Shown piece after piece: positions 9,388 through 53,272 of a DNA stretch of 64,000 nt. Position numbers and translations under genes: made by a program. The notes below the pieces were generated by a model that saw only the letters and a program-made list of their open reading frames with translations, was not told the origin of the DNA and did not search any database. Source of the stretch: Escherichia coli phage phiS; sequence record PP449093.1, one strand, 5' to 3'. Position 1 is the first letter of the stretch; the number at the start of each line of letters is the position of its first letter.

Positions 9388-9416
9388 TTGACTTACAGAA
9401 TCCAACATCGCATAAT
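9388..9416 (+). promoter_or_regulatory. early promoter cassette (TTGACT, 17 nt spacer, CATAAT)
   Basis: AAAAGTTGTTGACT upstream A-tract and -35, CATAAT -10, conserved ACACCCATACC leader. Confidence 0.65.
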
Positions 9417-9447
9417 ACACCCATACCAAACAAAAGGAGAATCAAAG

Positions 9448-9720
9448 ATGTGCAACGAAAACAGCAAAGTGTTGGCAATTGCAGATAAAGTAGGTTACTG
9501 GAAATGCTGGGATGATATGGAGAAATTAGGCGGTCGCTATCTCGATAACTTAGAGTTGCATTATTGCCAAGCGCGTAATGCAGAAGTTGCGGGAGTAGCA
9601 ATCGAAGATATTCCGTCTAAAGTCTTCGGATTCTCTAAAGATGATACTCTAGAGTATGTTTTTAAGGCTGTAATGGATCAAGCATGGGAAGACGCAGAGA
9701 CACGCGCTCTTGATTGGTGA
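9448..9720 (+). CDS. hypothetical early protein (90 aa)
   Basis: ATG after GGAGAATCAAAG; ORF-track start at 9385 is the TTG of the -35 element. Confidence 0.6.
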   Translation: MCNENSKVLAIADKVGYWKCWDDMEKLGGRYLDNLELHYCQARNAEVAGVAIEDIPSKVFGFSKDDTLEYVFKAVMDQAWEDAETRALDW

Positions 9721-9724
9721 TAAT

Positions 9725-9943
9725 ATGAACTGGTATAAAATTTGGAAAAATCAGGTGGAGGCTTATCTAGGGTATAAGCCCACCGACGAAGAATTACTCG
9801 ATGCAATGTACGAAGACGGACTAAATCCGAAAGTAGCCGCGCAAGAATACGCGGAATGGATGAAGGTCGAAAAGAACCTAGAGGCAACGAAAAATTTTCA
9901 CGAAAATAATAAAAAAGCAGTTGACGCCAAAGGTCATCGGTAG
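9725..9943 (+). CDS. hypothetical early protein (72 aa)
   Basis: First ATG of ORF-track 9710..9943. Confidence 0.5.
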   Translation: MNWYKIWKNQVEAYLGYKPTDEELLDAMYEDGLNPKVAAQEYAEWMKVEKNLEATKNFHENNKKAVDAKGHR

Positions 9944-9949
9944 TATTAT
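9921..9949 (+). promoter_or_regulatory. early promoter cassette (TTGACG, 17 nt spacer, TATTAT)
   Basis: Promoter lies in the 3 prime end of the preceding ORF; conserved CCCATACCGAAACGAA leader. Confidence 0.6.
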
Positions 9950-9983
9950 ACCCCCATACCGAAACGAAGTGGAGGAAATAAAA

Positions 9984-10226
9984 ATGGTTAAAGTTAATGT
10001 TATCGAAGTTGCACTGTACGACGCTGGAATCTTCCTGAATGAAAAAGAAGCTGCCGTCCTCGACGAACTGAAAACTGTTTTTGTTCCTGTAGTAGAAGAC
10101 GTAGAAGCAATCAAAATCGCTTCTCGTAAACTGTCCCGTGAAGCATTTGACATGATTGATCCGGTTTTCAAAGTTATGCACGAATGCGCGGTTATGATGA
10201 CCGAAGAAGAAGCGAAAAATTTCTAA
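9984..10226 (+). CDS. hypothetical early protein (80 aa)
   Basis: ATG after GGAGGAAATAAAA; ORF-track start at 9921 is inside the promoter. Confidence 0.6.
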   Translation: MVKVNVIEVALYDAGIFLNEKEAAVLDELKTVFVPVVEDVEAIKIASRKLSREAFDMIDPVFKVMHECAVMMTEEEAKNF

Positions 10227-10233
10227 AAACCAG

Positions 10234-10262
10234 TTGACGTAAAGAAACGGGAGTAGTAAGAT
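10234..10262 (+). promoter_or_regulatory. early promoter cassette with GGGAGTAGTAAGATACTCCC hairpin around the -10
   Basis: TTGACG, 17 nt spacer, TAAGAT; 7-bp stems GGGAGTA/TACTCCC flank the -10. Confidence 0.65.
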
Positions 10263-10291
10263 ACTCCCATACCAAACGAAAGGAGAATCAC

Positions 10292-10504
10292 ATGAAATCT
10301 ATCGAGCAAGTAGTAACAGAGTTTATGAGCTACGAAGGAAACCGCATCTTTGGACGTTCTCAAGTTCGCGAGATCGTGGAAGAGGTCTCTGGAGAGTTTG
10401 CGGAATCTGGTCACGTTACCACGCAAGAACGTAAAGAAGAAGCAGTAAACCAGATCATGGCTATGCAGAAAATGCGTATTAATGCACGAGCGGGTAAAAA
10501 TTAA
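10292..10504 (+). CDS. hypothetical early protein (70 aa)
   Basis: ATG after GGAGAATCAC. Confidence 0.6.
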   Translation: MKSIEQVVTEFMSYEGNRIFGRSQVREIVEEVSGEFAESGHVTTQERKEEAVNQIMAMQKMRINARAGKN

Positions 10505-10511
10505 AAAGTAG

Positions 10512-10540
10512 TTGACACCGGATTAAGGGAGTAGTAAGAT
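10512..10540 (+). promoter_or_regulatory. early promoter cassette with GGGAGTAGTAAGATACTCCC hairpin
   Basis: TTGACA, 17 nt spacer, TAAGAT inside the dyad. Confidence 0.65.
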
Positions 10541-10573
10541 ACTCCCATCAAGAAAAACATTGAGGAATATATT

Positions 10574-11332
10574 ATGAAAAACATTATCGCTGCTATCGTT
10601 CTTTCTGCTACTGCTTTCGGTGCTAACGCTGCGTCCTTTGATTGCGCTAAAGCGACTACCAAATCAGAGAAGTTTATTTGTGCTAACGAGTCTATCTCCG
10701 CGCTGGATTCGAAACTTCATGAAGTATATGTTAAGGCTGTTAAGATTGATCCGTCTCTTAAACAAGAGCAACGCAACTGGAATAAAACTGTTCGTGATAC
10801 AATGATCAATATCGGGCAGATTCAGCCACTGGAGGCTGTATACAACGCTCAAATCCAAAACTTGATGAATGCATTACCTAAAGAAGAAACCGCGTCAGAA
10901 AGCGATTCAGAGACTTCTGTGAAGGTTGACGAAGAACAACCGAAACAGGAAGAAAAAGTGGTGGAAGAACCGAAGGTCGAAACTTTTACCTATCAATGCA
11001 CCGTTCGTTATGAGTGGAGTATGAAAGATGGAATTTCCACAAAAATTAAAGAAGCGCCACTGTATGCCAAATATGGAAATCAACCAGGAGATCTTAAAGT
11101 AACCATTAAAAATGGGAAGATGGTTGATTTTGTATACATTGATGAATACAACGTACACAAAGCAAACGTACAAGAAACCGTTATGACTAAAGGCGGGTTT
11201 TATAAGAATGTTGGCAAGAAAGATCTATATGAATACTCCGTTTTCGAACCAAACGACGGAACTATTCGATTTGAAAAACGTCATCCTACATTCGGTGGCG
11301 CAATTGATGTAGATCAATACGTTTGCAAGTAA
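10574..11332 (+). CDS. secreted protein with N-terminal LprI/DUF1311-like (lysozyme-inhibitor family) domain
   Basis: Signal peptide MKNIIAAIVLSATAFGANA; CxxAxTxxExxIC..LD..L..Y motif; acidic linker; C-terminal domain of about 120 aa. Confidence 0.55.
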   Translation: MKNIIAAIVLSATAFGANAASFDCAKATTKSEKFICANESISALDSKLHEVYVKAVKIDPSLKQEQRNWNKTVRDTMINIGQIQPLEAVYNAQIQNLMNALPKEETASESDSETSVKVDEEQPKQEEKVVEEPKVETFTYQCTVRYEWSMKDGISTKIKEAPLYAKYGNQPGDLKVTIKNGKMVDFVYIDEYNVHKANVQETVMTKGGFYKNVGKKDLYEYSVFEPNDGTIRFEKRHPTFGGAIDVDQYVCK

Positions 11333-27371: not shown

Positions 27372-28052
27372 ATGATCAGAAACCGTCTTCCTCCAGATCC
27401 AGATATGCGAATTAATGCTAAATCTGTGTATATGTTATATTGCATGATGAAAGCTCATATGAACGGGCGTTATGATTGCGTAAAATATAATTGGAGGATG
27501 CGGTTATCTGATGCCGCATTCAATAAACGCAGAGATAAGTATTATTTCGCGAAATTAGCGGAAAAATACAATCTAAGAGAATTATACTTTCTATTCCTAA
27601 GCAATCTGGTAGCCAATACCGATGCATGGGTAGGTGAAATCACTGATGTTGACGCATACGGCTTTTATATGGAATACATAGGAAAGATAACCGATGCAGC
27701 AACACGATTTGACGATGACATTAAAAGTCTGGTATACTTCTCCGAGAAACGCGGGGTTACTCTTAAAGAGCTAATTACATACAATCCCGCAACCGAAACT
27801 AGCGGTATCTTTAAACTACTGCAAAATCGGATTATATCGTTTGAGTCGTTTATGTTGTTAGATAGCTTTCTAAATATAATCGACGAACACGACAAGGTAG
27901 CCAAAGACTTGATTTGGCAAACTTATAGTGTTAAAATGAAGGCGTACAAGAAACTACTTGTTATTGACGCCGCAAAAGCAAGAGCATTATTTGTTAAAGT
28001 AGTTAAAGAGTGTAAAGAAATATCTCAATTAAAAGCCGAAACAAATAGTTGA
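27372..28052 (+). CDS. 59: helicase loader / gp41 assembly protein gp59
   Basis: Resembles T4 gp59 (KSVY.LY.M.K.HMNG.YD..KYNW.MR.SDAA..KRRDKY.F.KL.EKY, FLSNLVAN.DAW.G.I.D.DA). Confidence 0.9.
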   Translation: MIRNRLPPDPDMRINAKSVYMLYCMMKAHMNGRYDCVKYNWRMRLSDAAFNKRRDKYYFAKLAEKYNLRELYFLFLSNLVANTDAWVGEITDVDAYGFYMEYIGKITDAATRFDDDIKSLVYFSEKRGVTLKELITYNPATETSGIFKLLQNRIISFESFMLLDSFLNIIDEHDKVAKDLIWQTYSVKMKAYKKLLVIDAAKARALFVKVVKECKEISQLKAETNS

Positions 28053-28076
28053 CAAGTAAACTTAAATCTGTATAAT
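28049..28076 (+). promoter_or_regulatory. sigma70-like promoter upstream of gene 32
   Basis: TTGACA, 16 nt spacer, TATAAT. Confidence 0.55.
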
Positions 28077-28118
28077 AGTCTAGCAAATTAATAGTTAATG
28101 TATAAAAGAGGTATAATT

Positions 28119-29074: not shown

Positions 29075-29104
29075 AAAGCCTTCCTTCGGGGAGGCTTTTT
29101 TATT
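29075..29104 (+). terminator. rho-independent terminator after gene 32
   Basis: GCCTTCC-TTCG-GGGAGGC followed by TTTTTTATT. Confidence 0.7.
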
Positions 29105-29128
29105 GCCTAAAATTTTATGAAAAAGGTG

Positions 29129-29156
29129 TTGACATGCTGATGTTAGGATGTATAAT
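29129..29156 (+). promoter_or_regulatory. sigma70-like early promoter
   Basis: AAAAAGGTGTTGACA, 16 nt spacer, TATAAT, ACAAACATCGAAAC leader. Confidence 0.6.
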
Positions 29157-29186
29157 ACAAACATCGAAACAAAGGAGGATAAAAAT

Positions 29187-30431
29187 ATGAAAACTTACTT
29201 TGCAAAAGATGTTTGTTATATTATCAAAAATAAATCCGTCTCAAAAACACCAGAACATTACGAGAATCTCTCAATAAGTTATGCATTGTCTCATGGTTTC
29301 GTTTATTTGGGGTTTATTGGAGAATATTCTGGATGCCAAACCCTGTCAAATTTTGAATGTAAAAGACATGGAACGTTTGCGGTCAGAGTAAAAAATCTAA
29401 ATCATGCTAAACATGGTTGCCCAAACTGTGCCCTTGAGAATAGGGCAGAAAAAAGAAAATTGAGTATAGAAAAGATTTATAACGACATAAATCGAATCTG
29501 TGATGAGAACGGAACCATAGAATTAACAGAAATTAAAGGTGGGTATAAAACAACAAAAACACGAAATTTATTTTTTAAATGTAAATTGTGTAATGGCATG
29601 TTTAATACATCACATGATCATTTAAAACGAGGTCAAGCATGTCCAAAATGTCGGTATAAAAAAATTTCTGTGTGTAATACTAGAAACCAACTTGATATTG
29701 AACTTGACATAAAAATAGAATGTAAAAAAAGAAAAACCGTTGAATTTGTAGAATTTGAAAATGGATATTGCAGATACAAGTCAAAAAATTTAATAATGAG
29801 ATGTTTGCGTGGACACGGAAATTACACAACAACAGCAAACGACTTTTTTAAGGGATGTGGTTGTCCTACATGCGGAGGAACGAAAAGACTAACAGAAAAA
29901 CAAGCATCTGAACAAATGATAAAAGAGTGTGAAATTAGAGGTTATGATTTTTTGGGATTTTTTAATGGGTATAAAAAGTCGGCAGAACCTAATGCAAAAT
30001 TAAAATGTAAACGCAGCGGGGTAAGTTTTTATACATCACACAACAATTTTATGAAAGGACAAAACTGTAAGTGTTGCTCTGAATTTGGATATAGAACAAC
30101 GAAATCTGGTGTTTTCTATGTACAGAAACTGTTAGAAAATAATATTTTTTGTGGTGTTAAATTTGGTGTAACCAATAGAACAACAAAAGAACGAATTGGA
30201 GGTCAATCTCGCCTTTCCAAATTCGACCACGAGATCTTTTATGAACTTACTTTACAAGACGGTCAAAAGATCTTAGACTTAGAGAACAAGATCAAGGAAG
30301 CGATGAAAGGTAAAACTTCCTATATCTCAAAAGAAGATATGCCGGATGGCTACACAGAGACAGTAGCACCGTCCGAATTGAGCACTATCATGTATATCGT
30401 AAAATCTTTTGAAAAAGAGTTGACAAAGTAA
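29187..30431 (+). CDS. Cys-rich protein: four tandem zinc-ribbon-like repeats plus C-terminal GIY-YIG-like domain
   Basis: Four repeats of about 28 aa ending in GCPxC / CPKC / CPTCGG / CKCC; C-terminal GVFYVQ...KFGVTNRTTKERI...EIFYEL; locus matches the T4 segG neighbourhood. Confidence 0.5.
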   Translation: MKTYFAKDVCYIIKNKSVSKTPEHYENLSISYALSHGFVYLGFIGEYSGCQTLSNFECKRHGTFAVRVKNLNHAKHGCPNCALENRAEKRKLSIEKIYNDINRICDENGTIELTEIKGGYKTTKTRNLFFKCKLCNGMFNTSHDHLKRGQACPKCRYKKISVCNTRNQLDIELDIKIECKKRKTVEFVEFENGYCRYKSKNLIMRCLRGHGNYTTTANDFFKGCGCPTCGGTKRLTEKQASEQMIKECEIRGYDFLGFFNGYKKSAEPNAKLKCKRSGVSFYTSHNNFMKGQNCKCCSEFGYRTTKSGVFYVQKLLENNIFCGVKFGVTNRTTKERIGGQSRLSKFDHEIFYELTLQDGQKILDLENKIKEAMKGKTSYISKEDMPDGYTETVAPSELSTIMYIVKSFEKELTK

Positions 30432-30447
30432 CATAGTATTGTATAAT
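30420..30447 (+). promoter_or_regulatory. sigma70-like early promoter
   Basis: TTGACA, 16 nt spacer, TATAAT, CGAACATCGAAAC leader; near-duplicate of the 29129 promoter. Confidence 0.6.
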
Positions 30448-30478
30448 ACGAACATCGAAACAAAGTGAGGATTACATT

Positions 30479-30808
30479 ATGTGGACTGTAGAACAAGAAG
30501 TTAACGGATCAATCGAAATTCTGTCTTGTGGTACTATTGAGGAATGTCTTAATACAGCCAACCGCAATTGTATTACAATTTATGAGTCTCGTCGCGGTGA
30601 TGGTAGTTTAATTCAAAGTGATTATCGTTACACTGCCGATAAAATTATCTTTCGTTTCTGGGAAAATGGTGTTAACGTTGGTGTCAGCCTACTGAAAAAG
30701 TATCGTGACTATTCAGAACGCTATTATGTTTGCCCTGATGATGGCACAGTGTTTAAAACAGAGATTAACGAAGAAAACGTTAACGAAAACTACCTTAAAA
30801 TGGTCTGA
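30479..30808 (+). CDS. hypothetical protein (109 aa)
   Basis: ORF after AGTGAGGATTACATT SD motif. Confidence 0.55.
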   Translation: MWTVEQEVNGSIEILSCGTIEECLNTANRNCITIYESRRGDGSLIQSDYRYTADKIIFRFWENGVNVGVSLLKKYRDYSERYYVCPDDGTVFKTEINEENVNENYLKMV

Positions 30809-33028: not shown

Positions 33029-35272
33029 ATGATTAAAAATGTTGTTAAGTCTTCCGGTCTGACTGTTCCGTTTGAAAAAGAAAAAGTAATGAAAATTCTT
33101 GAAGCGGCAGCCGAAGGTCATAACGTTGATCCATATGAATTGTTTGATATGGTTGAACCACTTCTGACAGAAGGTATGTCTACCAATGATATCCAGAAAG
33201 TATTGATTAAGGTCGCAGCAGATAACATTACTGTAGAAACACCAGATTATCAATATGTAGCAAGTAACCTTGCAATGTTCGCGCTTCGCAAATCAGTATA
33301 CGGTCAATTCCAACCGATTGATTTTTATAGCCATATTGAGCGTAATATTGCAACCGGAAAATATGATCGCGAAATTCTGCAAAAGTATTCCCGCGAAGAA
33401 GTGGAATATCTGGAGAAATTCATCGATCATAAACTTGATTTTAAAATGACCTACGCTGGTGCGATGCAGTTAAAAGAGAAATATCTTGTTCAGGATCGCA
33501 GCACTAAGAAAATCATTGAAACACCGCAGTTTGCGTATATGCTGATCGGTATGTGCTTACATCAAGAAGAGACAGAAAATCGACTTGAACATGTGATTGA
33601 TTTTTATAATGCTGTTGCGAATAAGCAAATTTCTCTGCCTACTCCGATTATGGCGGGTGTGCGTACCCCGACACGACAATTTAGTTCGTGTGTGGTTATT
33701 GAAAGTGATGACTCATTGCAGGGCATCAACGAAACAGCAAATGCAATCATCAAGTATATTAGTAAGCGTGCTGGTATCGGTATCAATGCTGGTATGATTC
33801 GCGCGGAAGGATCTAAGATCGGGCATGGTGAAGTTCGTCATACTGGCGTTATCCCATTCTGGAAACATTTTCAGACTGCCGTTAAGTCATGCTCACAAGG
33901 CGGTATTCGTGGCGGGGCGGCGACTCTCTATTACCCAATGTGGCATTTAGAGTTTGAAAGTCTTATTGTGTTGAAGAACAACAAAGGGGTAGAAGATAAC
34001 CGCATTCGTCATCTTGATTACGGCGTACAGATTAATAACCTGATGGTAGAGCGATTCCTTAAACGGGATTACATTACTCTGTTTAGTCCAGATGTTGCAG
34101 GTGGCTTGTTGTGGGATCTGTACTTCCGAGATGAGGAAGGTTTCCGCCAGCTTTACGAAAAACTGGAAAAAGATCCGAGTGTTCGTAAAACTCGTGTTAA
34201 AGCCGAAGACCTGTTTTTAGCGGTAGCAATTGAACGTTTTAACACTGGTCGAATCTACCCAACATTCACAGACAACATGAACAATCACGGGGCGTTTATT
34301 CGTAATGTAGCACCAATTAAACAATCTAACCTGTGTTGTGAAATTGCTCTGCCAACAAAACCGATGGGTCGTGATGATTCAGAAATTAGCCTATGTACTT
34401 TGGCAGCATATGTTTTAGGTAATTTCGATATCGAAAATATGGAAGAAGTAGAACGCATTGCTATGGTTATGGTGCGTGCACTTGACAACCTGTTAGATTA
34501 TCAGGATTATCCTGTAGAACAAGCTCTGACAGCCAAAAAACGTCGCTCTCTGGGTGTTGGTGTTACTAACTTTGCATCATATCTAGCAGATAATTTCTTC
34601 ACATATGAAGACGCTAACGAGTTTACGCATAAAACGTTTGAACGCTTGCAATATGCTCTGATTAAGGCTAGTGTGCGACTGGCTAAAGAGAAGGGTGCTT
34701 GCGAACTGATGCACGAAACACGTTATGGTCGCGGTGAACTGCCTATCGACTGGTACAAAAAGACAGTAGATGAACTGGTTGATCCGGTGTATGAGATGGA
34801 TTGGGAAGAACTGCGCGAAGACCTGAAAAAATATGGCATTCGTAACAGTACACTTTCGGCGCTGATGCCGTGTGAGTCGTCTTCTCAGGTATCTAACAGC
34901 ACAAACGGTATTGAACCGCCTCGCGGGATTGTATCGGTTAAAGGATCGAAAGAAGGGCAATTTAATCAGGTTATTCCGAACGTAGAGAATAATGCTGATG
35001 TTATTGACCTGCTTTGGACACTGATCAAGAAAGGTAACAAGCCTTATCTGACACTGGCAGCGATCATGCAGAAGTTTGTAGATCAGGCGATTAGTTCCAA
35101 TACATCCTATGATCCAAGCACTTATAAGACTGGTAAAGTCGATATTGCTGATGTGTTAGATGATATGTTGTTCGCTCAACATTACGGTCTGAAAACCCTG
35201 TATTATGCGAACGTTCGCGACGGTGCAGATGGTACGGAAGACGCTAGCGAGTGCTCATCTTGCAAGCTGTAA
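33029..35272 (+). CDS. nrdA: aerobic ribonucleotide reductase large subunit
   Basis: 747 aa; class Ia RNR alpha motifs incl. catalytic NLCCEI and C-terminal CxxC. Confidence 0.95.
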   Translation: MIKNVVKSSGLTVPFEKEKVMKILEAAAEGHNVDPYELFDMVEPLLTEGMSTNDIQKVLIKVAADNITVETPDYQYVASNLAMFALRKSVYGQFQPIDFYSHIERNIATGKYDREILQKYSREEVEYLEKFIDHKLDFKMTYAGAMQLKEKYLVQDRSTKKIIETPQFAYMLIGMCLHQEETENRLEHVIDFYNAVANKQISLPTPIMAGVRTPTRQFSSCVVIESDDSLQGINETANAIIKYISKRAGIGINAGMIRAEGSKIGHGEVRHTGVIPFWKHFQTAVKSCSQGGIRGGAATLYYPMWHLEFESLIVLKNNKGVEDNRIRHLDYGVQINNLMVERFLKRDYITLFSPDVAGGLLWDLYFRDEEGFRQLYEKLEKDPSVRKTRVKAEDLFLAVAIERFNTGRIYPTFTDNMNNHGAFIRNVAPIKQSNLCCEIALPTKPMGRDDSEISLCTLAAYVLGNFDIENMEEVERIAMVMVRALDNLLDYQDYPVEQALTAKKRRSLGVGVTNFASYLADNFFTYEDANEFTHKTFERLQYALIKASVRLAKEKGACELMHETRYGRGELPIDWYKKTVDELVDPVYEMDWEELREDLKKYGIRNSTLSALMPCESSSQVSNSTNGIEPPRGIVSVKGSKEGQFNQVIPNVENNADVIDLLWTLIKKGNKPYLTLAAIMQKFVDQAISSNTSYDPSTYKTGKVDIADVLDDMLFAQHYGLKTLYYANVRDGADGTEDASECSSCKL

Positions 35273-35280
35273 AATAAGTG

Positions 35281-35309
35281 TTGACGCGGGGAGAAATCCC
35301 CGCTATAAT
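35281..35309 (+). promoter_or_regulatory. early promoter with palindromic GC-rich spacer
   Basis: TTGACG, spacer CGGGGAGAAATCCCCGC (17 nt dyad), TATAAT. Confidence 0.65.
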
Positions 35310-35341
35310 ACAACCATCAAAAACAAGTGAGGATTTTTATT

Positions 35342-35509
35342 ATGACCAAATTAAAATGTGTTGCTGTAGATTTTGAGCTAGCTGATAGCTTTGTTGTCGG
35401 TGATGTATATGATGCTCGACATGATGGGGCTTGCTACTACGTTGAGGATGAATATGGCGTAGAATGGGCTATTCTTCCTGATGATAAATGCTTTGAGGTT
35501 GTAGGATAA
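35342..35509 (+). CDS. hypothetical protein (55 aa)
   Basis: ATG after GTGAGGATTTTTATT; ORF-track start is a GTG in the SD. Confidence 0.5.
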   Translation: MTKLKCVAVDFELADSFVVGDVYDARHDGACYYVEDEYGVEWAILPDDKCFEVVG

Positions 35510-38233: not shown

Positions 38234-38244
38234 TGTTTGTTCAA

Positions 38245-38270
38245 AGTCGCCCATAGTGGCGACTTTTTTT
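38245..38270 (+). terminator. rho-independent terminator
   Basis: AGTCGCC-CATAGTG-GCGACT followed by TTTTTTT. Confidence 0.7.
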
Positions 38271-38281
38271 GTTATTGGGTG

Positions 38282-38310
38282 TTGACAATCGGATCGTGGT
38301 ATAGCATAAT
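38282..38310 (+). promoter_or_regulatory. early promoter cassette (TTGACA, 17 nt spacer, CATAAT)
   Basis: Conserved GCACCCATCGAAACGGAGGA leader. Confidence 0.65.
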
Positions 38311-38334
38311 GCACCCATCGAAACGGAGGAACAT

Positions 38335-38553
38335 ATGGAAACAGAAGAACAAGTCATTGCATATTTTCATCGTAAAAAGATGAAACTTAGAATCGAAAAA
38401 CAGTACATCAATCACTACATTGACCAAGTTCACTTAACAAGTACACCTTACCTATTCCGGTTGATAAACCCTAGAAAACGGTGGGAGAAGTTGGATAGAA
38501 ACACAAAAATAATTGATAAGCTCACCCAATGGTGGAATGAATACAACAAGTAA
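38335..38553 (+). CDS. hypothetical early protein (72 aa)
   Basis: ORF after promoter cassette. Confidence 0.6.
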   Translation: METEEQVIAYFHRKKMKLRIEKQYINHYIDQVHLTSTPYLFRLINPRKRWEKLDRNTKIIDKLTQWWNEYNK

Positions 38554-38560
38554 AAAGTAG

Positions 38561-38589
38561 TTGACACTGAATAACGGGGGTAGTAAGAT
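38561..38589 (+). promoter_or_regulatory. early promoter cassette with GGGGGTAGTAAGATACTCCC hairpin
   Basis: TTGACA, 17 nt spacer, TAAGAT. Confidence 0.65.
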
Positions 38590-38622
38590 ACTCCCATCGA
38601 AACGAAACAAAGGAGAATCAAA

Positions 38623-38841
38623 ATGAAATTTACTTGCACCGACTCTATCAACAAACACTTTGTAGTGGGCGAAGTATACGAATCTACTACTATTCGTCAA
38701 CGTGACCTGATGGGTCGCCTTTACAATCAGCCAGTATTCATTATTGGTGAAGAATTGTTCTACATTGAAAACCGTCCGTGGGTTGCTTTCAATAAACGAG
38801 GACGCAAGGTAGCAAAATTCGAACTTGTCATTAAAAAGTAG
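38623..38841 (+). CDS. hypothetical early protein (72 aa)
   Basis: ORF after promoter cassette. Confidence 0.6.
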   Translation: MKFTCTDSINKHFVVGEVYESTTIRQRDLMGRLYNQPVFIIGEELFYIENRPWVAFNKRGRKVAKFELVIKK

Positions 38842-38870
38842 TTGACAGCATATCACGGGAGTAGTAAGAT
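38842..38870 (+). promoter_or_regulatory. early promoter cassette with GGGAGTAGTAAGATACTCCC hairpin
   Basis: TTGACA, 17 nt spacer, TAAGAT. Confidence 0.65.
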
Positions 38871-38903
38871 ACTCCCATACCAAAACAACTAAGGAGTATC
38901 AAG

Positions 38904-39302
38904 ATGATTAAATTTCAAACTCGCAAAGACGTTCTGGACTTCGTTAAAGTTTTCGGTTACGCTGCATTGCAACATGCAATGGACAAAATGACCATCTCCC
39001 CAGATCAGACTATGCTGATCCGTATGGTTAAAGCAACCGCCTACAAAAACGACATTACCCTCTCAGAAATCAACGACGGTAATACTGTCCGCGAGGTAAT
39101 TGTTTCTTTCGAATCACCGAAAATTGGCGGTTTTCATACCACGATGTTAGGTGAAATCACTGTCACTGTATACGGGCAAGGTGGCGGAGTGTTTACCGTC
39201 AAAGAAGCAATGGAAAATGGAACGCTGAACAAAGAAAAACTGGAATTTGTCCTGAAAATCATCAAGGAGCGTAACGAAGCTCGCGATATTCTGGAAAGTT
39301 AA
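38904..39302 (+). CDS. hypothetical early protein (132 aa)
   Basis: ORF after promoter cassette. Confidence 0.6.
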   Translation: MIKFQTRKDVLDFVKVFGYAALQHAMDKMTISPDQTMLIRMVKATAYKNDITLSEINDGNTVREVIVSFESPKIGGFHTTMLGEITVTVYGQGGGVFTVKEAMENGTLNKEKLEFVLKIIKERNEARDILES

Positions 39303-43657: not shown

Positions 43658-43659
43658 CA

Positions 43660-46830: not shown

Positions 46831-47299
46831 TAATGAAGGGGCGAAAGCCCCTAAACCTAAAAAATTGTCAAAGAAAGAGCAACGCCAGATCCTGAAAATG
46901 AAATATGGTGGACGTTGTGCCTATTGTGGCGAGGAACTAGGGGATCGCTGGCACGCAGACCACATCAAACCAGTATTGCGACGCTCAAAGGTAGTCTATG
47001 ATGAAAATGGACGAATTGCCCGTAATGATGATGGATCGTGGAAGTATAAGGTTGTAGGAATGCATAAACCGGAGCATGATATACTTGATAACATGAATCC
47101 GGCGTGTGTGCAATGCAATCTTTACAAAAGCTGTATGGGCTTAGAATACTGGCGTAAGTGTATACGCGAGAACTTCCAGAAGTACATTCAGCACAATATG
47201 GGATTGCGAGCGGCTAAACGCTTTGGCTTGCTGTCAATTCATGACCAGCCAGTAGAATTTTATTTCGAAAAGTACGAGCGCGAGCATCAAGAAAAATAA
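46823..47299 (+). CDS. HNH endonuclease
   Basis: CAYCGEEL...HADHIKP...NMNPACVQCN. Confidence 0.7.
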   Translation: MCDNEGAKAPKPKKLSKKEQRQILKMKYGGRCAYCGEELGDRWHADHIKPVLRRSKVVYDENGRIARNDDGSWKYKVVGMHKPEHDILDNMNPACVQCNLYKSCMGLEYWRKCIRENFQKYIQHNMGLRAAKRFGLLSIHDQPVEFYFEKYEREHQEK

Positions 47300-47313
47300 T
47301 TCAAAAAAAGTTG

Positions 47314-47342
47314 TTGACAGGGGATCACCGATCCCCTATACT
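47314..47342 (+). promoter_or_regulatory. early promoter with palindromic spacer GGGGATCACCGATCCCC
   Basis: TTGACA, 17-nt perfect dyad spacer containing two GATC, TATACT. Confidence 0.65.
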
Positions 47343-47387
47343 ACACACATCAAAACGAAACACACTTTCTTAAACGGAGAATCAAAA

Positions 47388-47555
47388 ATGTTCCAGACTA
47401 AAGCAGAATGCGAAGCATACATTGTAGCAAACCACGGTGAAGACTACCTGAAATTCGATATCGTAGTAGCACAGAAGATCACCGGAATGGTTGCAAAATA
47501 TCTGGGTGTTAAAGAAGGTTACTATCCAAGCAACGCACCAGAAATTAACAAATAA
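47388..47555 (+). CDS. hypothetical early protein (55 aa), paralog of 50645..50812
   Basis: MFQTKAECEAYIVANHGEDYLKFDIVVAQKI... against MFETKAACEAYIIETYGEDYLKFDIVVAQKI... Confidence 0.55.
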   Translation: MFQTKAECEAYIVANHGEDYLKFDIVVAQKITGMVAKYLGVKEGYYPSNAPEINK

Positions 47556-47558
47556 TAG

Positions 47559-47587
47559 TTGACAATGATTAAAGGGAGTAGTAAGAT
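47559..47587 (+). promoter_or_regulatory. early promoter cassette with GGGAGTAGTAAGATACTCCC hairpin
   Basis: TTGACA, 17 nt spacer, TAAGAT. Confidence 0.65.
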
Positions 47588-47619
47588 ACTCCCATAAAGA
47601 CAACAAACGGAGAATCAAA

Positions 47620-47799
47620 ATGAAAGCTATCGAAGTTCAGAAGTACATGGAACTCATCATTGAAGGTAAAGCACATACAGTATTGACTACCCACGTAGGA
47701 TATGATAAAAATGTGCATATGCTGGTAGACAATATCGGTTGGATGAAGTTTAATCCTAACGAGAATGTACAAGCTCAAGAAATGACCATCCCTTTCTAA
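47620..47799 (+). CDS. hypothetical early protein (59 aa)
   Basis: ATG after GGAGAATCAAA; below ORF-track cutoff. Confidence 0.5.
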   Translation: MKAIEVQKYMELIIEGKAHTVLTTHVGYDKNVHMLVDNIGWMKFNPNENVQAQEMTIPF

Positions 47800-47811
47800 G
47801 AGGAATATATT

Positions 47812-48286: not shown

Positions 48287-48288
48287 TT

Positions 48289-48811: not shown

Positions 48812-48815
48812 TATT

Positions 48816-49094
48816 ATGTTCAAAGTAGGTGATAAGTTTATTCTTAGTCGTGATATTCTACCTAATCTGAAAGGTTGTATCATCAATCCTAGTAAAAATT
48901 CATGGTTTTATCTGTTTATCGACGACAAACTGAATGTACGCGCCGAATATAAAGAAGGTCTTCGCACTGGCCTCGGTTTCTTTAACGATCACGATCATAG
49001 CCATTGGCTAAACGGTGGATTCGAAGCAACGGTGCTCGCGGTTGATGTGACCTACACAAACATCATAGAAAAATATCAAAAAATTATTTTATAA
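48816..49094 (+). CDS. hypothetical protein (92 aa), 4-gene paralog family
   Basis: FYLFIDDKLNVRAEY...HSHW...VLAVD; ATG after GTGAGGACTAATATT. Confidence 0.55.
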   Translation: MFKVGDKFILSRDILPNLKGCIINPSKNSWFYLFIDDKLNVRAEYKEGLRTGLGFFNDHDHSHWLNGGFEATVLAVDVTYTNIIEKYQKIIL

Positions 49095-49100
49095 AAAGTG

Positions 49101-49129
49101 TTGACATAAGATCGGGTGTATAGCATAAT
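49101..49129 (+). promoter_or_regulatory. early promoter cassette with GGGTGTAT..ATACACCC dyad around the -10
   Basis: TTGACA, 17 nt spacer, CATAAT. Confidence 0.65.
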
Positions 49130-49175
49130 ACACCCATCGAAACGAGATACACTTTCTAACTAGGAGAATCAAATT

Positions 49176-49463
49176 ATGGCATACATCACCATCACTCTGA
49201 AAGTTAACAAATTTGCTCACGCTGCACACGAAACCGATAATGCAATCCGTAACAACAAGTTCGCACGTCTGGTACGCGATGCGGTAGCTAAAGAGTTCAA
49301 CTTCAAATTTGCCGATGGTAAAGTTATCACTAAATGGACTCATGACGGCGAAACTAAAGTAGAACTTGCTGACAACTTCGCAAATCAGGAATATGCACAC
49401 CGTCGCATTAATGAAATTATCAGCGATGAACTCTACTACGGTGTACAGGAAGGACTGTTTTAA
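49176..49463 (+). CDS. hypothetical early protein (95 aa)
   Basis: ATG after GGAGAATCAAATT. Confidence 0.6.
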   Translation: MAYITITLKVNKFAHAAHETDNAIRNNKFARLVRDAVAKEFNFKFADGKVITKWTHDGETKVELADNFANQEYAHRRINEIISDELYYGVQEGLF

Positions 49464-49512
49464 TATATGGGGCGTTAAGCCACTTTTAATCTATCTGAAT
49501 GAGGATATCACT

Positions 49513-49821
49513 ATGAAAAATCTTGTAGTTGAATTTACCCGCGAGAATTTACCACAATTACGCAACTCTCTGCTTAAACTAGAGAACAGTAATTATGATG
49601 TATATTTTTACATCACAGAAGACCTAGAGATCCTTTACGCAGATTATCCAGGTCCGATCCGTACTTTCGAAACAGCATCAAAGTATAAAAATGTTTACGG
49701 TCATGAGCACTGGTTACGAGAAAACCCAGGTCGCAAGAAAGCACGCGTTAAAGTGCTGGCGATTGACATAACACCAGCATACGCCGACCGGATTGCACAG
49801 AATGATTATTTGTCTAAATGA
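49513..49821 (+). CDS. hypothetical protein (102 aa), 4-gene paralog family
   Basis: VYFYITEDLEILYADY...HEHW...VLAID; ATG after GAGGATATCACT. Confidence 0.55.
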   Translation: MKNLVVEFTRENLPQLRNSLLKLENSNYDVYFYITEDLEILYADYPGPIRTFETASKYKNVYGHEHWLRENPGRKKARVKVLAIDITPAYADRIAQNDYLSK

Positions 49822-49828
49822 TTTTATT

Positions 49829-49857
49829 AGCCGACCTTAGCGTCGGCTTTTTTATTG
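49829..49857 (+). terminator. rho-independent terminator
   Basis: AGCCGAC-CTTAGC-GTCGGCT followed by TTTTTTATT. Confidence 0.7.
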
Positions 49858-49877
49858 CATAAAATTTTAAAAAAGAA

Positions 49878-49906
49878 TTGACACCAGATCACGCCTATAG
49901 CATAAA
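49878..49906 (+). promoter_or_regulatory. early promoter cassette (TTGACA, 17 nt spacer, CATAAA)
   Basis: Conserved ATACACCCATCAAAACGAGATACC leader. Confidence 0.6.
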
Positions 49907-49947
49907 TACACCCATCAAAACGAGATACCACTTAGGAGAATCAAACA

Positions 49948-50217
49948 ATGGCACTGACTAAAACCACTACCAACTTTGCAAAACGTCACGGCTTCGACCT
50001 TGAAATCAATAGCTTTAACGATTACACCCTTCTGTGTGTATATGAAATCGAAAATGATTGCGAGTGGATGTTCAGCTATCGCGTAAACGAAGACGGATCT
50101 TTCACTTGGAACGGAAATATCTATCTTGCACAGGAAGTAAAAGAAGAACTTCCGGCGACCATCAAAGATGAGAAACATTTACGTCAAGTTTTAAAATTTA
50201 TTTCTGAAAATATCTAA
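49948..50217 (+). CDS. hypothetical early protein (89 aa)
   Basis: ATG after GGAGAATCAAACA. Confidence 0.6.
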   Translation: MALTKTTTNFAKRHGFDLEINSFNDYTLLCVYEIENDCEWMFSYRVNEDGSFTWNGNIYLAQEVKEELPATIKDEKHLRQVLKFISENI

Positions 50218-50225
50218 AAAAGTTG

Positions 50226-50254
50226 TTGACACTAAAGTAAGAACATAGCATAAT
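50226..50254 (+). promoter_or_regulatory. early promoter cassette (TTGACA, 17 nt spacer, CATAAT)
   Basis: AAAAAGTTGTTGACA ... CATAATACACCCATACCGAAACGAA. Confidence 0.65.
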
Positions 50255-50287
50255 ACACCCATACCGAAACGAACTGGAGAATCAAAA

Positions 50288-50569
50288 ATGAAATTCATCA
50301 AAGCAACCGAAATCCTGAAAAACAAAGAAGCATACATCGGAAACATCGTTGGTATGAACATTCGCGGCGCTGGTAGCCAGTGGACCAAACTGGTTGATGT
50401 TAAAGCTAAAGGCGATAAAATTGAGTTCACTGTAAAAATGCTTACGCATAACGCACATATGGGTATCAAGACAAAAACGATGGCAGCAGATAAAAGCATT
50501 AACTATCAGGATCTGGGTGATTGGCTGAACTGGTGCAAAATGCACAACATCGAAACTAATCACGAATAA
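50288..50569 (+). CDS. hypothetical early protein (93 aa)
   Basis: ATG after GGAGAATCAAAA. Confidence 0.6.
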   Translation: MKFIKATEILKNKEAYIGNIVGMNIRGAGSQWTKLVDVKAKGDKIEFTVKMLTHNAHMGIKTKTMAADKSINYQDLGDWLNWCKMHNIETNHE

Positions 50570-50582
50570 TTTAAAAAAGTTG

Positions 50583-50611
50583 TTGACGGGGATCGGGAGA
50601 TCCCCTATAAT
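50583..50611 (+). promoter_or_regulatory. early promoter with palindromic spacer GGGGATCGGGAGATCCCC
   Basis: TTGACG, 17 nt GC-rich dyad spacer with two GATC, TATAAT. Confidence 0.65.
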
Positions 50612-50644
50612 ACACACATACCGAAACGAAATAGGAGAATCAAA

Positions 50645-50812
50645 ATGTTCGAGACTAAAGCAGCATGTGAAGCATATATCATTGAAACCTACGGTGAAGA
50701 TTATCTGAAATTTGACATTGTAGTAGCACAGAAGATTGTAGGGATGGTTGCGAAATACCTGGGTGTTAAAGAAGGTTACTATCCTAGCAACGCACCAGAA
50801 ATTAACAAATAA
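50645..50812 (+). CDS. hypothetical early protein (55 aa), paralog of 47388..47555
   Basis: About 85 percent identical to the 47388 product by eye; same promoter class. Confidence 0.55.
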   Translation: MFETKAACEAYIIETYGEDYLKFDIVVAQKIVGMVAKYLGVKEGYYPSNAPEINK

Positions 50813-50826
50813 TTTTATAAAAAGTG

Positions 50827-50855
50827 TTGACAGGGGAGGATAACTCCCCTACAAT
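50827..50855 (+). promoter_or_regulatory. early promoter with palindromic spacer GGGGAGGATAACTCCCC
   Basis: TTGACA, 17 nt dyad spacer, TACAAT. Confidence 0.6.
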
Positions 50856-50895
50856 ACAACCATCAAAACGAGATACCACTTAGGAGAATCAAACA

Positions 50896-51147
50896 ATGGC
50901 TAACATCGAAACCGCAAAGAAAATCGCTAAAGACCTGAACGTTAAAGGCTTCCGTAAACTGAAATTACAGCGTGTACGCTACACCATCGGCAAACAGTGC
51001 TCTTTCATGAGCGAAGAAATTGCTAACAGCCTGATTGATAACCTGATTGCGGCTGGCTGGGAAGTTGCGGATCTGAAAACTTGCCGCGAACTGGCTAACA
51101 AAGGTCTTTTAGATTCTGTTACTATCAAACCAATGGGGGCAGCGTGA
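50896..51147 (+). CDS. hypothetical early protein (83 aa)
   Basis: ATG after GGAGAATCAAACA. Confidence 0.6.
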   Translation: MANIETAKKIAKDLNVKGFRKLKLQRVRYTIGKQCSFMSEEIANSLIDNLIAAGWEVADLKTCRELANKGLLDSVTIKPMGAA

Positions 51148-51680
51148 ACAATATAGACTGGAAGAAATACTTTAATTATGATCCTGATACTGGTATTCTT
51201 ACATGGAAGGAGAGAACAGATATACACCCATCAAGAATAAAACAATGGAATGCTGCATGGGCTGGAAAGGAGGTCGGGTCACTAGGAAGTGGTGGACGTT
51301 ATCTTGAATCGTCAATAAAAATTGACGGTAAAATTATTAACTACAAAGTTCATCGAGTATGTTATATTATCCACAATGGACCTATACCAGAAGGATATGA
51401 AGTAGACCATATTAATCACATTAAGACAGATAATAGAGCGGTGAATTTTGAACTTAAGACACATCAAGACAACATGAGGAATCAAACAAAATCTAAAAAG
51501 AATACAAGCGGACACAGTGGAATACATAAAAACAAATACAATAAATGGGTAGTTAGAATTGGCAGCGGTCGTCGTGGTGATAGAAAATATCTAGGATGCT
51601 TCGATACATTAGAAGAAGCTATAGAGGTTAGAACCAAAGCAGAAAGAGAGCATGGCTATCATGAAAACCACGGAAAGTAA
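51144..51680 (+). CDS. HNH homing endonuclease with AP2-like DNA-binding domain
   Basis: VDHINHIKTDNRAVN HNH motif; C-terminal SGHSGIHKNKYNKWVVRI...YLGCFDTLEEA; GTG start overlapping the upstream stop. Confidence 0.7.
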   Translation: MNNIDWKKYFNYDPDTGILTWKERTDIHPSRIKQWNAAWAGKEVGSLGSGGRYLESSIKIDGKIINYKVHRVCYIIHNGPIPEGYEVDHINHIKTDNRAVNFELKTHQDNMRNQTKSKKNTSGHSGIHKNKYNKWVVRIGSGRRGDRKYLGCFDTLEEAIEVRTKAEREHGYHENHGK

Positions 51681-52386
51681 ACTTATATTCTGTAATTTTG
51701 ATGGGTCCGGTATCATGGGTCTAGAATGGGCGAAAGCAGGTCATAAGGTGATCTGCTTTAACGCAGATGATGCGGATCATGGAACATATAAAAAATACAA
51801 CACTCGATTTGAGCATCCCAACCTAACATATGTTAATGCATGGATTGACCTAGATTGGTTGGAAAGGGCAATGGACCTTGAATGGGGCAAACCGGATATG
51901 ATCTTTGCGTTTCCTAGCTGTTCAAATTTAGCGGTTAGTGGCGCTGCACATTTTGAGCGTAAGCGAAAAACTCTAGGTCCACTCATTCAGCATAGAGATG
52001 TTCAAACAGCTAAAATAACCGCTTATTTGGGTGAATGGCTAGGAGTTCCCTACATGATAGAGAATCCTGTAAGCGTTATCTCTAGCATGTGGCGTAAGCC
52101 TGATTATATGTTCCATCCGTGGGAATATGGCGGTTATTTGCCGGAAGATGATAAACATCCTACTTTTCCTGAGTATATTGCCGCCCGTGATATGTACCCG
52201 AAAAGGACTTGCTTATGGACCGGACAAGGCTTTATAATGCCAGAAAAGAAACCGTTGCAGATTAATAAAGGGTACAGTAAACAGCATTCTAAGCTAGGCG
52301 GGAAAGGAACGAAAACAAAGACTATAAGGTCACTTACCCCGCGAGGATTCGCAAAGGCAGTATTTGAAGCAAATAAGGATCTATAA
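51652..52386 (+). CDS. compact C5-cytosine-methyltransferase-fold protein (244 aa, no obvious target-recognition domain)
   Basis: Motif I FCNFDGSGIMG; motif IV-like FAFPSCSNLAVSG (Cys kept, Ser where PC has Pro); motif VI ENP; C-terminal RSLTPRGFAKAV resembles motif IX. Confidence 0.5.
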   Translation: MAIMKTTESKLIFCNFDGSGIMGLEWAKAGHKVICFNADDADHGTYKKYNTRFEHPNLTYVNAWIDLDWLERAMDLEWGKPDMIFAFPSCSNLAVSGAAHFERKRKTLGPLIQHRDVQTAKITAYLGEWLGVPYMIENPVSVISSMWRKPDYMFHPWEYGGYLPEDDKHPTFPEYIAARDMYPKRTCLWTGQGFIMPEKKPLQINKGYSKQHSKLGGKGTKTKTIRSLTPRGFAKAVFEANKDL

Positions 52387-52715
52387 TGAGATTGTTTAAG
52401 TATTCGCTAACGTCAAATTACGATAAACAAGGTCATTGCATCCGTTGCCCTGATTGTCATAACCATAACATCGAAAGCAAGATCACCGATCATATTGATG
52501 GACTTTGGTCGCCAGCAAGTGAAATAGAATACTATTGCGCTGATTGTGGAATTGTAGTAGCATATTGGGCATACGGATCATATGATCCATACTTCCAGAT
52601 GGGAGAGCGTTCAATCCCTGCGCTTATCTGGAGAATTAAGAACAATATCCGCCATTCATGGGATGAGTTATTAAAAGATATTGATTTACGTGATGATCCA
52701 TTCAGGAGACTATAA
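52386..52715 (+). CDS. zinc-ribbon protein (109 aa)
   Basis: CIRCPDC and YCADCG cysteine clusters; start overlaps upstream stop. Confidence 0.5.
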   Translation: MRLFKYSLTSNYDKQGHCIRCPDCHNHNIESKITDHIDGLWSPASEIEYYCADCGIVVAYWAYGSYDPYFQMGERSIPALIWRIKNNIRHSWDELLKDIDLRDDPFRRL

Positions 52716-52716
52716 C

Positions 52717-53235
52717 ATGAACAGATTAACCCCTAAACGCCGTTACTATACCAATACTAAAAACTTTGTCATCTCTGTTTATGAGGCGTGGTTAGAAGAT
52801 GGCTATATCAACATGAACCCAGATTATCAGCGTCCTTTGGTATGGGACACCGAAAACAAACGTATGTTTATCGAAAACCTGATTAATGATTTTCCGGTTG
52901 GTGCTATCGCAATGGCTAAGATTGATGATGGCTCTCGATATGAGATCGAAATCGTGGACGGTAAACAGCGTTTAAACGCAATATTCTCCTTCATGAAGGA
53001 TGAGTTTAGCATTGCTGGTAATGATGATTCTATGCTGTATTACAGTGATTTTACGCCAGCAGAAAAGCGACGTTTCCGAAATCTCGGACTACCCGCGATA
53101 ATGATGGAAGAGAGCACACGAGAAGACCGATTAGAGTATTTCTACAAAACAAACTTTTTCGGTGTCCCTCAATCGGAAGAACATCGCCAGCATGTGATTT
53201 CCCTATTGCAAGATGAGCAATTAAAAAATAACTAA
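52717..53235 (+). CDS. DUF262 / ParB-like nuclease-domain protein (172 aa)
   Basis: YQRPLVW and IVDGKQRLNAI (DGQQR-type) motifs; ATG after AGGAGAC; ORF-track start 52681 is TTG. Confidence 0.55.
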   Translation: MNRLTPKRRYYTNTKNFVISVYEAWLEDGYINMNPDYQRPLVWDTENKRMFIENLINDFPVGAIAMAKIDDGSRYEIEIVDGKQRLNAIFSFMKDEFSIAGNDDSMLYYSDFTPAEKRRFRNLGLPAIMMEESTREDRLEYFYKTNFFGVPQSEEHRQHVISLLQDEQLKNN

Positions 53236-53242
53236 AAAGTTG

Positions 53243-53272
53243 TTGACAGGGGGATCGGTGATCCCCTATAAT
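53243..53272 (+). promoter_or_regulatory. early promoter with palindromic spacer GGGGGATCGGTGATCCCC
   Basis: TTGACA, 18 nt dyad spacer with two GATC, TATAAT. Confidence 0.65.

Follow-up and report, generated by a model that had tools for sequence, protein, structure and literature searches.

The 64,000 nucleotides of Escherichia coli phage phiS analysed here (sequence record PP449093.1; this whole stretch is hereafter called the window) contain, mostly between positions 9388 and 53272, a short unit that recurs ahead of small genes, and in which a promoter is combined with a GC-rich hairpin placed in its spacer or around its -10 box. What are these repeated units, and why should a hairpin be lodged inside a promoter? 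The initial annotation of the window had likened them to the early-promoter cassettes of RB49-type phages, and had put forward operators, Dam-methylation-sensitive switches or recombination hotspots as possible roles for their palindromes. Our analysis leads to the conclusion, to which we give a probability of about 0.85, that the repeats are promoter-early stem-loops (PeSLs), the composite regulatory cassettes of Krischvirus (RB49/phi1-type) phages, in which a terminator or attenuator is joined to a promoter and the whole doubles as a patch of homology. The roles listed initially left out termination or attenuation of upstream transcription, which is the function with experimental backing. 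The PeSL family was described, named and partly tested in 2010 in the same phage genus, and the repeats of the window are a rediscovery of it.

Identity of the cassettes

The window comes from a Krischvirus, i.e. an RB49/phi1-like, T4-type coliphage, and is 94-96% identical to phi1, GEC-3S, ECD7 and others. Its 47-54 kb stretch shows this same 94-96% identity to approximately 58 Krischvirus genomes, phi1, RB49, JSE, GEC-3S and ECD7 among them, and positions 47304-51148 are collinear with phi1 ORF205-ORF190 and 93% identical to that region, PeSLs included. The cassette at 50560-50650 is found in other Krischvirus genomes with up to 98.9% identity, and 46 of the 64 matching records have at least 95%. 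Promoters are marked in the annotation of GEC-3S at positions homologous to the cassettes.

PeSLs were defined in phi1 and RB49 as an AT-rich tract, a promoter of sigma-70 consensus, a stem-loop that is often of the polyG...polyC type, a Shine-Dalgarno sequence and an ATG (Arbiol et al. 2010, PMC2839356). The same study already separated the stem-loops lying between -35 and -10 from those overlapping the -10, and reported approximately 52 PeSLs per genome, mainly in hyperplastic regions. Afterwards, the RB49/phi1 elements were summarised by the consensus TTGACA-N17-TATAAT together with a stem of the G-run/loop/C-run type (Comeau et al. 2014, PMC4122927). In PeSLs of the phi1/RB49 type, five placements of the stem with respect to the promoter are distinguished. 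The cassettes of the window, found at orthologous positions, match the description of PMC2839356 feature by feature: AT tract, promoter, placement of the stem, Shine-Dalgarno and ATG are all shared, as are the location in hyperplastic regions upstream of ORFans and the association with indels. The likeness to RB49-type PeSLs proposed initially is thereby confirmed. No essential difference was seen; the window, which is without ORF210-206 and ORF186, has a mosaic and copy numbers of its own. PMC2839356 does not discuss the GATC content, the RegB-like Shine-Dalgarno sequence or the gap-length rule considered below.

Cassette 47314 of the window is the counterpart of two PeSLs that were tested by Arbiol et al. 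(PMC2839356). The first is phi1 PeSL206/205, whose core is identical to that of 47314 and whose promoter activity was strong, reaching approximately 13,000 Miller units. The second is PeSL211/210, whose stem had a terminator-like activity, in that it cut lacZ expression about as strongly as rrnB T1.

As judged by the phi1 annotation, the small ORFans among which the cassettes are set form three clusters, and cassettes also occupy a few gaps beside gene 32, nrdA and nrdB. The clusters lie at 9.4-10.5, 38.3-38.9 and 47.3-53.3 kb, where the cassettes are intergenic and co-directional with early genes. The open reading frames (ORFs) behind them are mostly 55-132 aa long, belong to PHROGs of unknown function, and are ORFans in the phi1 annotation.

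Census and architecture

A profile hidden Markov model of the cassette was built from 17 clear sites, with a high-confidence threshold of E<1e-6. It retrieved 19 sites at this threshold, all on the + strand and 18 of them inside 9388-53272, and its search of the - strand returned no cassette. Looser matches to the promoter-plus-hairpin pattern at 1916, 28049 and 55657 bring the total to 22 (sites are named, as they were initially, by the first T of TTGAC; all cassettes and terminators located below are on the + strand). The architecture that had been announced for at least 22 sites between 9388 and 53272 is thus found again, but the count has to be lowered: this range holds 18 confident sites and a loose one, and 22 is reached only with 1916, 2285 and 55657, which lie outside it.

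From 5' to 3', the stop codon of the upstream gene lies in an A-rich, UP-element-like tract (A+T of 0.68-0.88 in the 25 nt upstream of the -35), followed by a sigma-70 promoter, usually a GC-rich stem-loop of 6-8 bp, an A/C-rich leader of 20-45 nt, and finally the Shine-Dalgarno GGAGAAUCA and ATG. Promoters consist of TTGAC[AGT], a spacer of 16-18 nt, then TATAAT, CATAAT, TAAGAT or TATACT, and their hexamers match the sigma-70 consensus at 10-12 positions out of 12. At 22/22 sites, a Shine-Dalgarno-like motif with an ATG follows the -10 by 21-46 nt. Two elements turned out less uniform than had been described. The leader CACCCATACCGAAACGA, presented as conserved, occurs exactly once and with at most one mismatch at 4 sites, leaders being in general degenerate and A/C-rich; moreover, the first bases of the leader are the 3' arm of the -10 hairpin. 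The Shine-Dalgarno GGAGAATCA is exact at 11 sites of the + strand, 10 of which are the Shine-Dalgarno of a cassette.

The stem-loop is placed in the spacer in class A cassettes, and around the -10 in class B. Among the 22 sites, 14 have an embedded stem (5 in the spacer, 9 over the -10), 4 have an upstream terminator, and 4 are without any stem. The palindromic spacers with GATC reported at 47314, 50583 and 53243 are present as stated: GGGGATCaccGATCCCC at 47319-47337 (class A cassette 47294..47390), GGGGATCgggaGATCCCC at 50588-50605 (class A, 50563..50647) and GGGGGATCggtGATCCCC at 53249-53267 (class A, 53223..53311). So are the related GC palindromes at 35281 and 50827, which are free of GATC, namely GCGGGGAgaaaTCCCCGC at 35286-35303 (class A, 35261..35344; identical in 4 genomes; z -4.8 relative to dinucleotide shuffles) and GGGGAGgataaCTCCCC at 50832-50850 (class A, 50807..50898; z -4.3). 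The pattern GGGGATC-N4-GATCCCC matches 50588 alone, because the loops of the other two palindromes are of 3 nt.

In class B2, the hairpin is formed by the 20-mer GGGAGTAGTAAGATACTCCC, present in 5 copies, all on the + strand, for a chance expectation of zero. Copies are exact at 10249-10268 (cassette 10214..10294), 10527-10546 (10492..10576), 38857-38876 (38822..38906) and 47574-47593 (47539..47622). The fifth, GGGGGTAG..ACTCCC at 38576-38595 (38541..38625), has one mismatch, which keeps a G-U pairing; the 20-nt element said to be identical at five sites is therefore identical at four. At all these sites, a spacer of 17 nt puts the -10 TAAGAT in the loop and 3' arm. Class B1 cassettes are found at 2265..2346, with the hairpin GATCGGGGATAT..ATGTCCCCATC over a CATAAT -10 (profile E of 2e-7), and at 49081..49178, with GATCGGGTGTAT..ATACACCCATC at 49110-49138. 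Two cassettes have a B1-type core with a decayed stem, 38262..38337 and 49858..49950, the latter with a 1-nt insertion in the -10 of the window (CATAAAT). In two loose cassettes located outside 9388-53272, a hairpin encloses the -10: 1896..1980 (TTGACA-16-TATAAT), with a hairpin at 1925-1956 (dG -21.3, z -5.5), and 55637..55720, after the alt gene, with CGGGGACTAG..CTAGCCCCG followed by TTTTCTGTT (z -4.6).

Other cassettes have no hairpin of this kind. Two PeSLs without embedded hairpin are found at 9368..9450 (TTGACT-17-CATAAT, Shine-Dalgarno GGAGAATCA) and 29109..29189 (Shine-Dalgarno GGAGGATAAAA). Only weak structure is seen at 9901..9986 (TTGACG-17-TATTAT), a PeSL-type promoter without hairpin lies at 30400..30481, and the hairpin-less PeSL at 50206..50290 has kept only the 3' arm ATACACCC. 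The loose promoter upstream of gene 32, 28029..28100 (TTGACA-16-TATAAT), has no hairpin and is not a confident cassette (E 3.7).

Conservation of the stems

The 44 nt starting at each -35 were folded and ranked against all such 44-nt segments of this genome. At 14/22 sites, the hairpin was at or below the 5th percentile. The embedded hairpins have a dG of -11 to -21 kcal/mol, and z-scores of -2.0 to -5.5 against dinucleotide shuffles. Orthologs were then compared in the syntenic DNA of 11 relatives, which gave 161 cassettes in all; these relatives were taken from GenBank phage records, since an Alt-anchored search of IMG/VR yielded 2 related contigs only.

Among the orthologs of 49101, seven phages share GGGTGTAT..ATACACCC (as six distinct variants of the core), two have the compensatory combination GGGGATAT..ATATCCCC, and another has GGGGGTAT..ATATCCCC. 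Across relatives, the 20-mer family alternates between GGGAGTA..TACTCCC and GGGGGTA..TACCCCC. At the level of single pairs, B1 pair 17:32 is UA in 9 cases and GC in 4, B1 pair 18:31 is GC in 11, AU in 3 and GU in 1, and B2 pair 19:32 is AU in 7, GC in 5 and GU in 2. Paired cells amount to 73% and 98% of the B1 and B2 alignments, respectively, as compared to 21-75% in slid-column controls, and the observed covariation score was rarely reached by shuffles. In class A, 38/38 distinct cores have uninterrupted stems, made with 13 arm sequences and loops of 3-6 nt. It is thus pairing, and not sequence, that is conserved in the stems, which argues for a nucleic-acid structure. An Rfam scan of the 64 kb, on both strands, gave no family match at gathering score.

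These data bear directly on the operator role that had been suggested. In such a reading, the palindromes bind a protein, which might be a repressor shutting off the early promoters, or a recombination factor targeted to PeSLs as speculated by Arbiol et al. themselves (PMC2839356); the G-run/C-run character of the stems is indeed conserved, and the dyad overlaps the RNA polymerase footprint. However, compensatory changes that keep pairing speak against a sequence-specific operator, and the arms (13 types in class A alone), the loop length and the position relative to the hexamers all differ between sites. Moreover, canonical terminators replace the dyads where space allows. We therefore consider an operator improbable.

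Two observations were made on the stems beside these comparisons. In the orthologs of 49878, the six bases that follow 'ccaGATC' (49891-49896) take seven forms across ten distinct cores (acgcct, acgccc, tagcct, ctgtgt, cggcct, cgacct...); this hypervariable hexamer is at the expected place of the B1 5' arm, in genomes that are approximately 95% identical. At 50821-50865 and 35275-35318, a pairing is possible in RNA between the bases surrounding the -35 (GUGUUG) and those of the -10 region (CAAUAC / UAAUAC), which would lengthen the class A hairpin to an interrupted helix of approximately 13 bp (dG -19 kcal/mol, z -4.3 to -4.8).

Hairpin position and length of the intergenic gap

Why is the hairpin inside the promoter at some sites, and ahead of it at others? 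In cassettes with an embedded hairpin, the gap between the upstream stop codon and the -35 is of 0-17 nt. Four cassettes have a gap of 48-62 nt (9388, 29129, 38282 and 49878); none has an embedded hairpin, and in 4/4 cases the gap contains a canonical intrinsic terminator made of a GC hairpin and a T-run, at 9347..9378, 29075..29104, 38243..38271 and 49829..49856, respectively. Gap length and hairpin type are associated (Fisher p=0.006). A separate terminator would thus not fit in the short intergenic gaps, hence the place of the hairpin within the promoter: the embedded stem has the appearance of an upstream-gene terminator, compressed into the one part of the next promoter that is free.

Embedded stems resemble canonical intrinsic terminators in that a gene ends with a GC-rich hairpin. 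A T-run follows the -10-enclosing hairpin at 1916, and comes directly after the inner stem at 55657. In contrast, class A and B stems are without T-tract and overlap the next promoter.

The following scheme may be proposed. Host RNA polymerase would initiate early transcripts directly 3' of the stem, approximately 7 nt downstream of the -10. With a start predicted at this place, the stem would be present only in RNA reading through from the upstream gene, and not in the transcript of the cassette itself. In read-through RNA, the hairpin would terminate or attenuate transcription and so insulate each small gene, as the lacZ assay showed for the phi1/RB49 PeSL211/210 stem, the ortholog of the one at 47314, and as we infer for the others. 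Short gaps would lead to a hairpin within the promoter, long gaps to a canonical terminator instead. Finally, the approximately 90 nt of conserved sequence serve as a homology patch, with which the phage recombination system deletes, inserts or swaps the flanked ORFans, as the breakpoints and chimeras described below show. Our confidence is high for the promoter role and for the recombination role; with regard to termination, it is moderate for class A stems and lower for class B stems.

Gene exchange at the cassettes

We quantified exchanges by taking as breakpoints the ends of megablast blocks between the window and the 11 relatives. The 118 internal ends fell into 41 distinct clusters, 19 of which are inside cassettes. 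Given that cassettes represent 4.1% of the range, this is a more than 10-fold enrichment (binomial P=4.5e-16). Three large indels have their ends outside cassettes, and each of them holds a homing-endonuclease ORF absent from most relatives, at 35892-36566 (NUMOD3), 43654-44271 (NUMOD4+HNH_3) and 51144-51680 (HNH_3, replacing phi1 ORF189.1).

Mosaic cassettes were also found. Cassette 47314 has the upstream tract, leader and Shine-Dalgarno of phi1 PeSL212/210, the hairpin loop and -10 of PeSL206/205, and ORF205 behind it. It follows that phi1 ORF210-206 are missing here, by a deletion that this cassette marks, with a crossover in the shared Shine-Dalgarno/ATG patch. Cassette 53243 is a chimera: as far as 53309 it matches phi1 PeSL187/186, its match to PeSL186/185 begins at 53232, and the window has no ORF186. 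Judging from these alignments, both are textbook PeSL-PeSL deletions. In addition, one downstream gene is preceded by a class A core in some phages and by a class B core in others, which implies exchange within the cassette. In phi1/RB49, PeSL-PeSL recombination was reported to produce mini-circles (ORF192/210 circles; PMC2839356). Breakpoint enrichment, chimeric cassettes and this earlier work thus bear out the proposal of recombination hotspots, and the comparison of cassette positions among related phages places changes in gene content at the cassettes.

Could the inverted repeats act as DNA in these exchanges? A cruciform might modulate promoter opening, or offer a target to structure-specific nucleases that start recombination. 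It would fit with the crossovers, which map beside the stems, with the -10 lying in the loop of class B hairpins, and with the existence of class A loops in both orientations, acc and ggt being exact reverse complements at orthologous sites. However, arms of 6-8 bp are short for extrusion in vivo, and exchange between paralogous PeSLs having either loop explains the flips equally well. A role as cruciform appears very unlikely to us. The flip itself was observed in the 3-nt loop of GGGGATCnnnGATCCCC (47326-47328), acc in some phages and ggt in others, and could result from loop inversion or from paralogous exchange; since the two are indistinguishable, loop inversion was dropped as evidence for a cruciform.

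Two 55-aa ORFans, at 47388-47555 and 50645-50812 (phi1 ORF205 and ORF191 types), are paralogs with 87% identity, and as both are behind a class A PeSL of the GATC type, the gene plus its cassette has been duplicated as a unit. Accessory genes flanked by cassettes are found in the regions 52681-53235, 10574-11332, 46823-47299 and 55718-56542. Their products are a protein limited to the GmrSD N-terminal (DUF262) domain, an LprI-like protein (lysozyme inhibitor family), a small HNH protein after the DNA ligase and, following alt, a second ADP-ribosyltransferase. Morons and integron gene cassettes are likewise small accessory genes travelling with their own expression signals; unlike them, PeSLs have neither integrase nor attC sites, and their mobility is attributed to homologous recombination between regulatory repeats.

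GATC sites in the spacers

Of 105 cassettes, 41% have a GATC in the interval from -35 to -10, whereas the proportion among random 30-mers is 13%. Its offset from TTGACA is sharply fixed at +9, and in class A stems two copies lie 7-8 nt from each other. Such an enrichment is what would be expected if the palindromic spacers were Dam/SeqA-sensitive switches, tying early promoters to the methylation or replication state and coupling their shut-off or re-use to replication. RB49-type phages do not figure in the list of phages with a gene 42 dCMP hydroxymethylase, so that GATC should be an ordinary Dam substrate, and a putative DNA methyltransferase is encoded in the same region. However, GATC is confined to one stem subfamily, and stems of the GGGGAG..CTCCCC and CGGGGA..TCCCCG types are free of it yet stably conserved. 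It is situated in the spacer, outside the hexamers, and is lost in 3/10 orthologs of 49101, while one arm has lost it in class A sites of phi1 and G5211. In B1 stems, GAT only lengthens the helix, by pairing with ATC of the leader. Genome-wide, the 347 GATC sites are unremarkable (observed/expected 1.04), and the analogous stems of Certrevirus phages, described below, have none. Finally, PeSL206/205, which is of the GATC type, was very active in a presumed dam+ cloning strain (PMC2839356). The Dam switch that had been suggested is thus unsupported, and we hold it to be highly doubtful; if true, Dam/SeqA sensing would be a control layer not described for any T4-type phage, and the PeSL papers mention neither GATC nor Dam.

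The invariance of 'ccaGATC' in the orthologs of 49878 was considered as a sign of Dam selection, and rejected: against a background of 94-96% identity, it is the adjoining hexamer that is unusually variable, and other sites do lose GATC. The methyltransferase gene mentioned above, at 51652-52386, is a homolog of ORF189; its product is called 'DNA methyltransferase' by RefSeq and PHROG 757, and has no Pfam/NCBIfam match. This gene shows approximately 80% DNA identity, over approximately 175 nt, with Salmonella phages of approximately 48 kb.

Discussion

Several points weigh against the reading of the cassettes as joint terminator, promoter and homology patch, and most of them concern termination. 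The 8 nt after the stems contain 1-3 U in class A (UAUAAUAC) and 0-1 U in class B (AUACCAAA), so these are not canonical intrinsic terminators. A generic terminator scan of the + strand called only 49829 and 53527, and no embedded class A or B hairpin. The only stem for which termination was observed is of class A, in a plasmid assay (PMC2839356). Hairpin and upstream terminator are both missing from 4/22 cassettes, and approximately half of the B1-type cores have decayed stems, the hairpin being therefore dispensable at some sites. In the literature, neither transcript-end data nor a transcriptome paper was found for any Krischvirus. As for recombination, the excess of breakpoints could partly reflect a better tolerance of intergenic sites to indels, rather than a higher rate of exchange.

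The U-poor tails of class B stems bring in another reading, in which the hairpins, especially those of class B, mainly protect the 3' end of the upstream mRNA. The RegB endoribonuclease would cut the read-through RNA at the next Shine-Dalgarno, exonucleases would stop at the hairpin, and stable monocistronic messages would result; this is compatible with the cassettes being PeSLs, and could coexist with attenuation. The RegB/S1 target consensus is GGAGRAYARAA, of 11 nt (PMC1702504), and the divergent RegB of RB49 cleaves GGAG/U sites in vivo (PMC3014915). Among the cassette Shine-Dalgarno sequences, GGAGAAUCAAA is present in 10 copies and GGAGGAUAAAA in one; the former matches 10/11 positions of this consensus, and PeSL-driven early mRNAs may therefore be built-in RegB targets. 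On the other hand, the motif departs from the consensus at position 8 (C instead of A), and GGAG would be a strong Shine-Dalgarno in any case. Moreover, a pure stabiliser would not lower downstream lacZ expression, as the PeSL211/210 stem did (PMC2839356). We regard 3'-end protection as the main function of the hairpins as a possible, rather tentative reading, and keep termination or attenuation as the preferred one. Sites with GGAGAATCAAA are located at 9436, 38612, 47376, 47609, 49163, 49935, 50276, 50634 and 50883, and GGAGGATAAAA is at 29174, with 10-11 consensus positions matched; PMC2839356 does not mention RegB.

Similar cassettes exist in other phages. Composite promoter-terminator motifs (PeSLs/PmSLs) are likewise found in T4/PST and KVP40/nt-1, in hyperplastic regions where they mark indels between close relatives (PMC4122927). 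Their promoter consensus is weaker (TTTACW / TTGYVH), their stems are AT-richer (A3-4G3..C3T3-4, AGNA..TCNT) and usually upstream of the promoter, whereas Krischvirus stems are embedded.

A 91-nt cassette also matches six Cronobacter phage records (PBES 02, CR3 and CR8 among them), the match in CR3 being at JQ691612.1 87354-87428. In PBES 02 (Certrevirus, Vequintavirinae; KT353109.1 141962-147045), the cassette design is repeated in no fewer than 8 of the 11 gaps that separate small ORFs: TTGAC is followed by a spacer with a perfect GC hairpin (CCGGG..CCCGG or GGGGCC..GGCCCC), by TATAAT, and by a leader rich in A and C, then a Shine-Dalgarno. The Krischvirus cassette profile recognizes this phage with E=2.5e-10. 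For Certrevirus phages CB7, CR3, CR8 and PBES 02, sigma-70-like early promoters located ahead of clusters of short ORFs were described as AAAA-N3-TGTTGAC-N17-19-TATAAT (Buttimer et al. 2020, PMC7344957), in a promoter description from which the words hairpin, stem-loop and palindrome are absent. Certrevirus phages belong to another subfamily and their stems are different, without GATC. Horizontal transfer of cassettes between Certrevirus and Krischvirus was considered and rejected, because the flanked ORFs have no homology and the DNA similarity is at the level of motifs only. The likeness is thus probably an analogy, i.e. a parallel design rather than a shared mobile cassette.

As a discovery, the cassettes of the window carry little weight, PeSLs being known since 2010 in the same genus. 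What the case does illustrate is that a reader given the sequence only was able to recover a real, published regulatory and recombination element. Three smaller leads are offered to specialists: the parallel design of Certrevirus cassettes, the RegB-like Shine-Dalgarno, and the U-poor tails of the embedded hairpins, with the question of how such hairpins would terminate transcription. For Krischvirus phages, the gap-length rule provides a simple account of the position of the hairpin inside the promoter, and the 11 additional genomes, by the enrichment of breakpoints and the mosaic cassettes, give quantitative support to the view that gene content changes at PeSLs.

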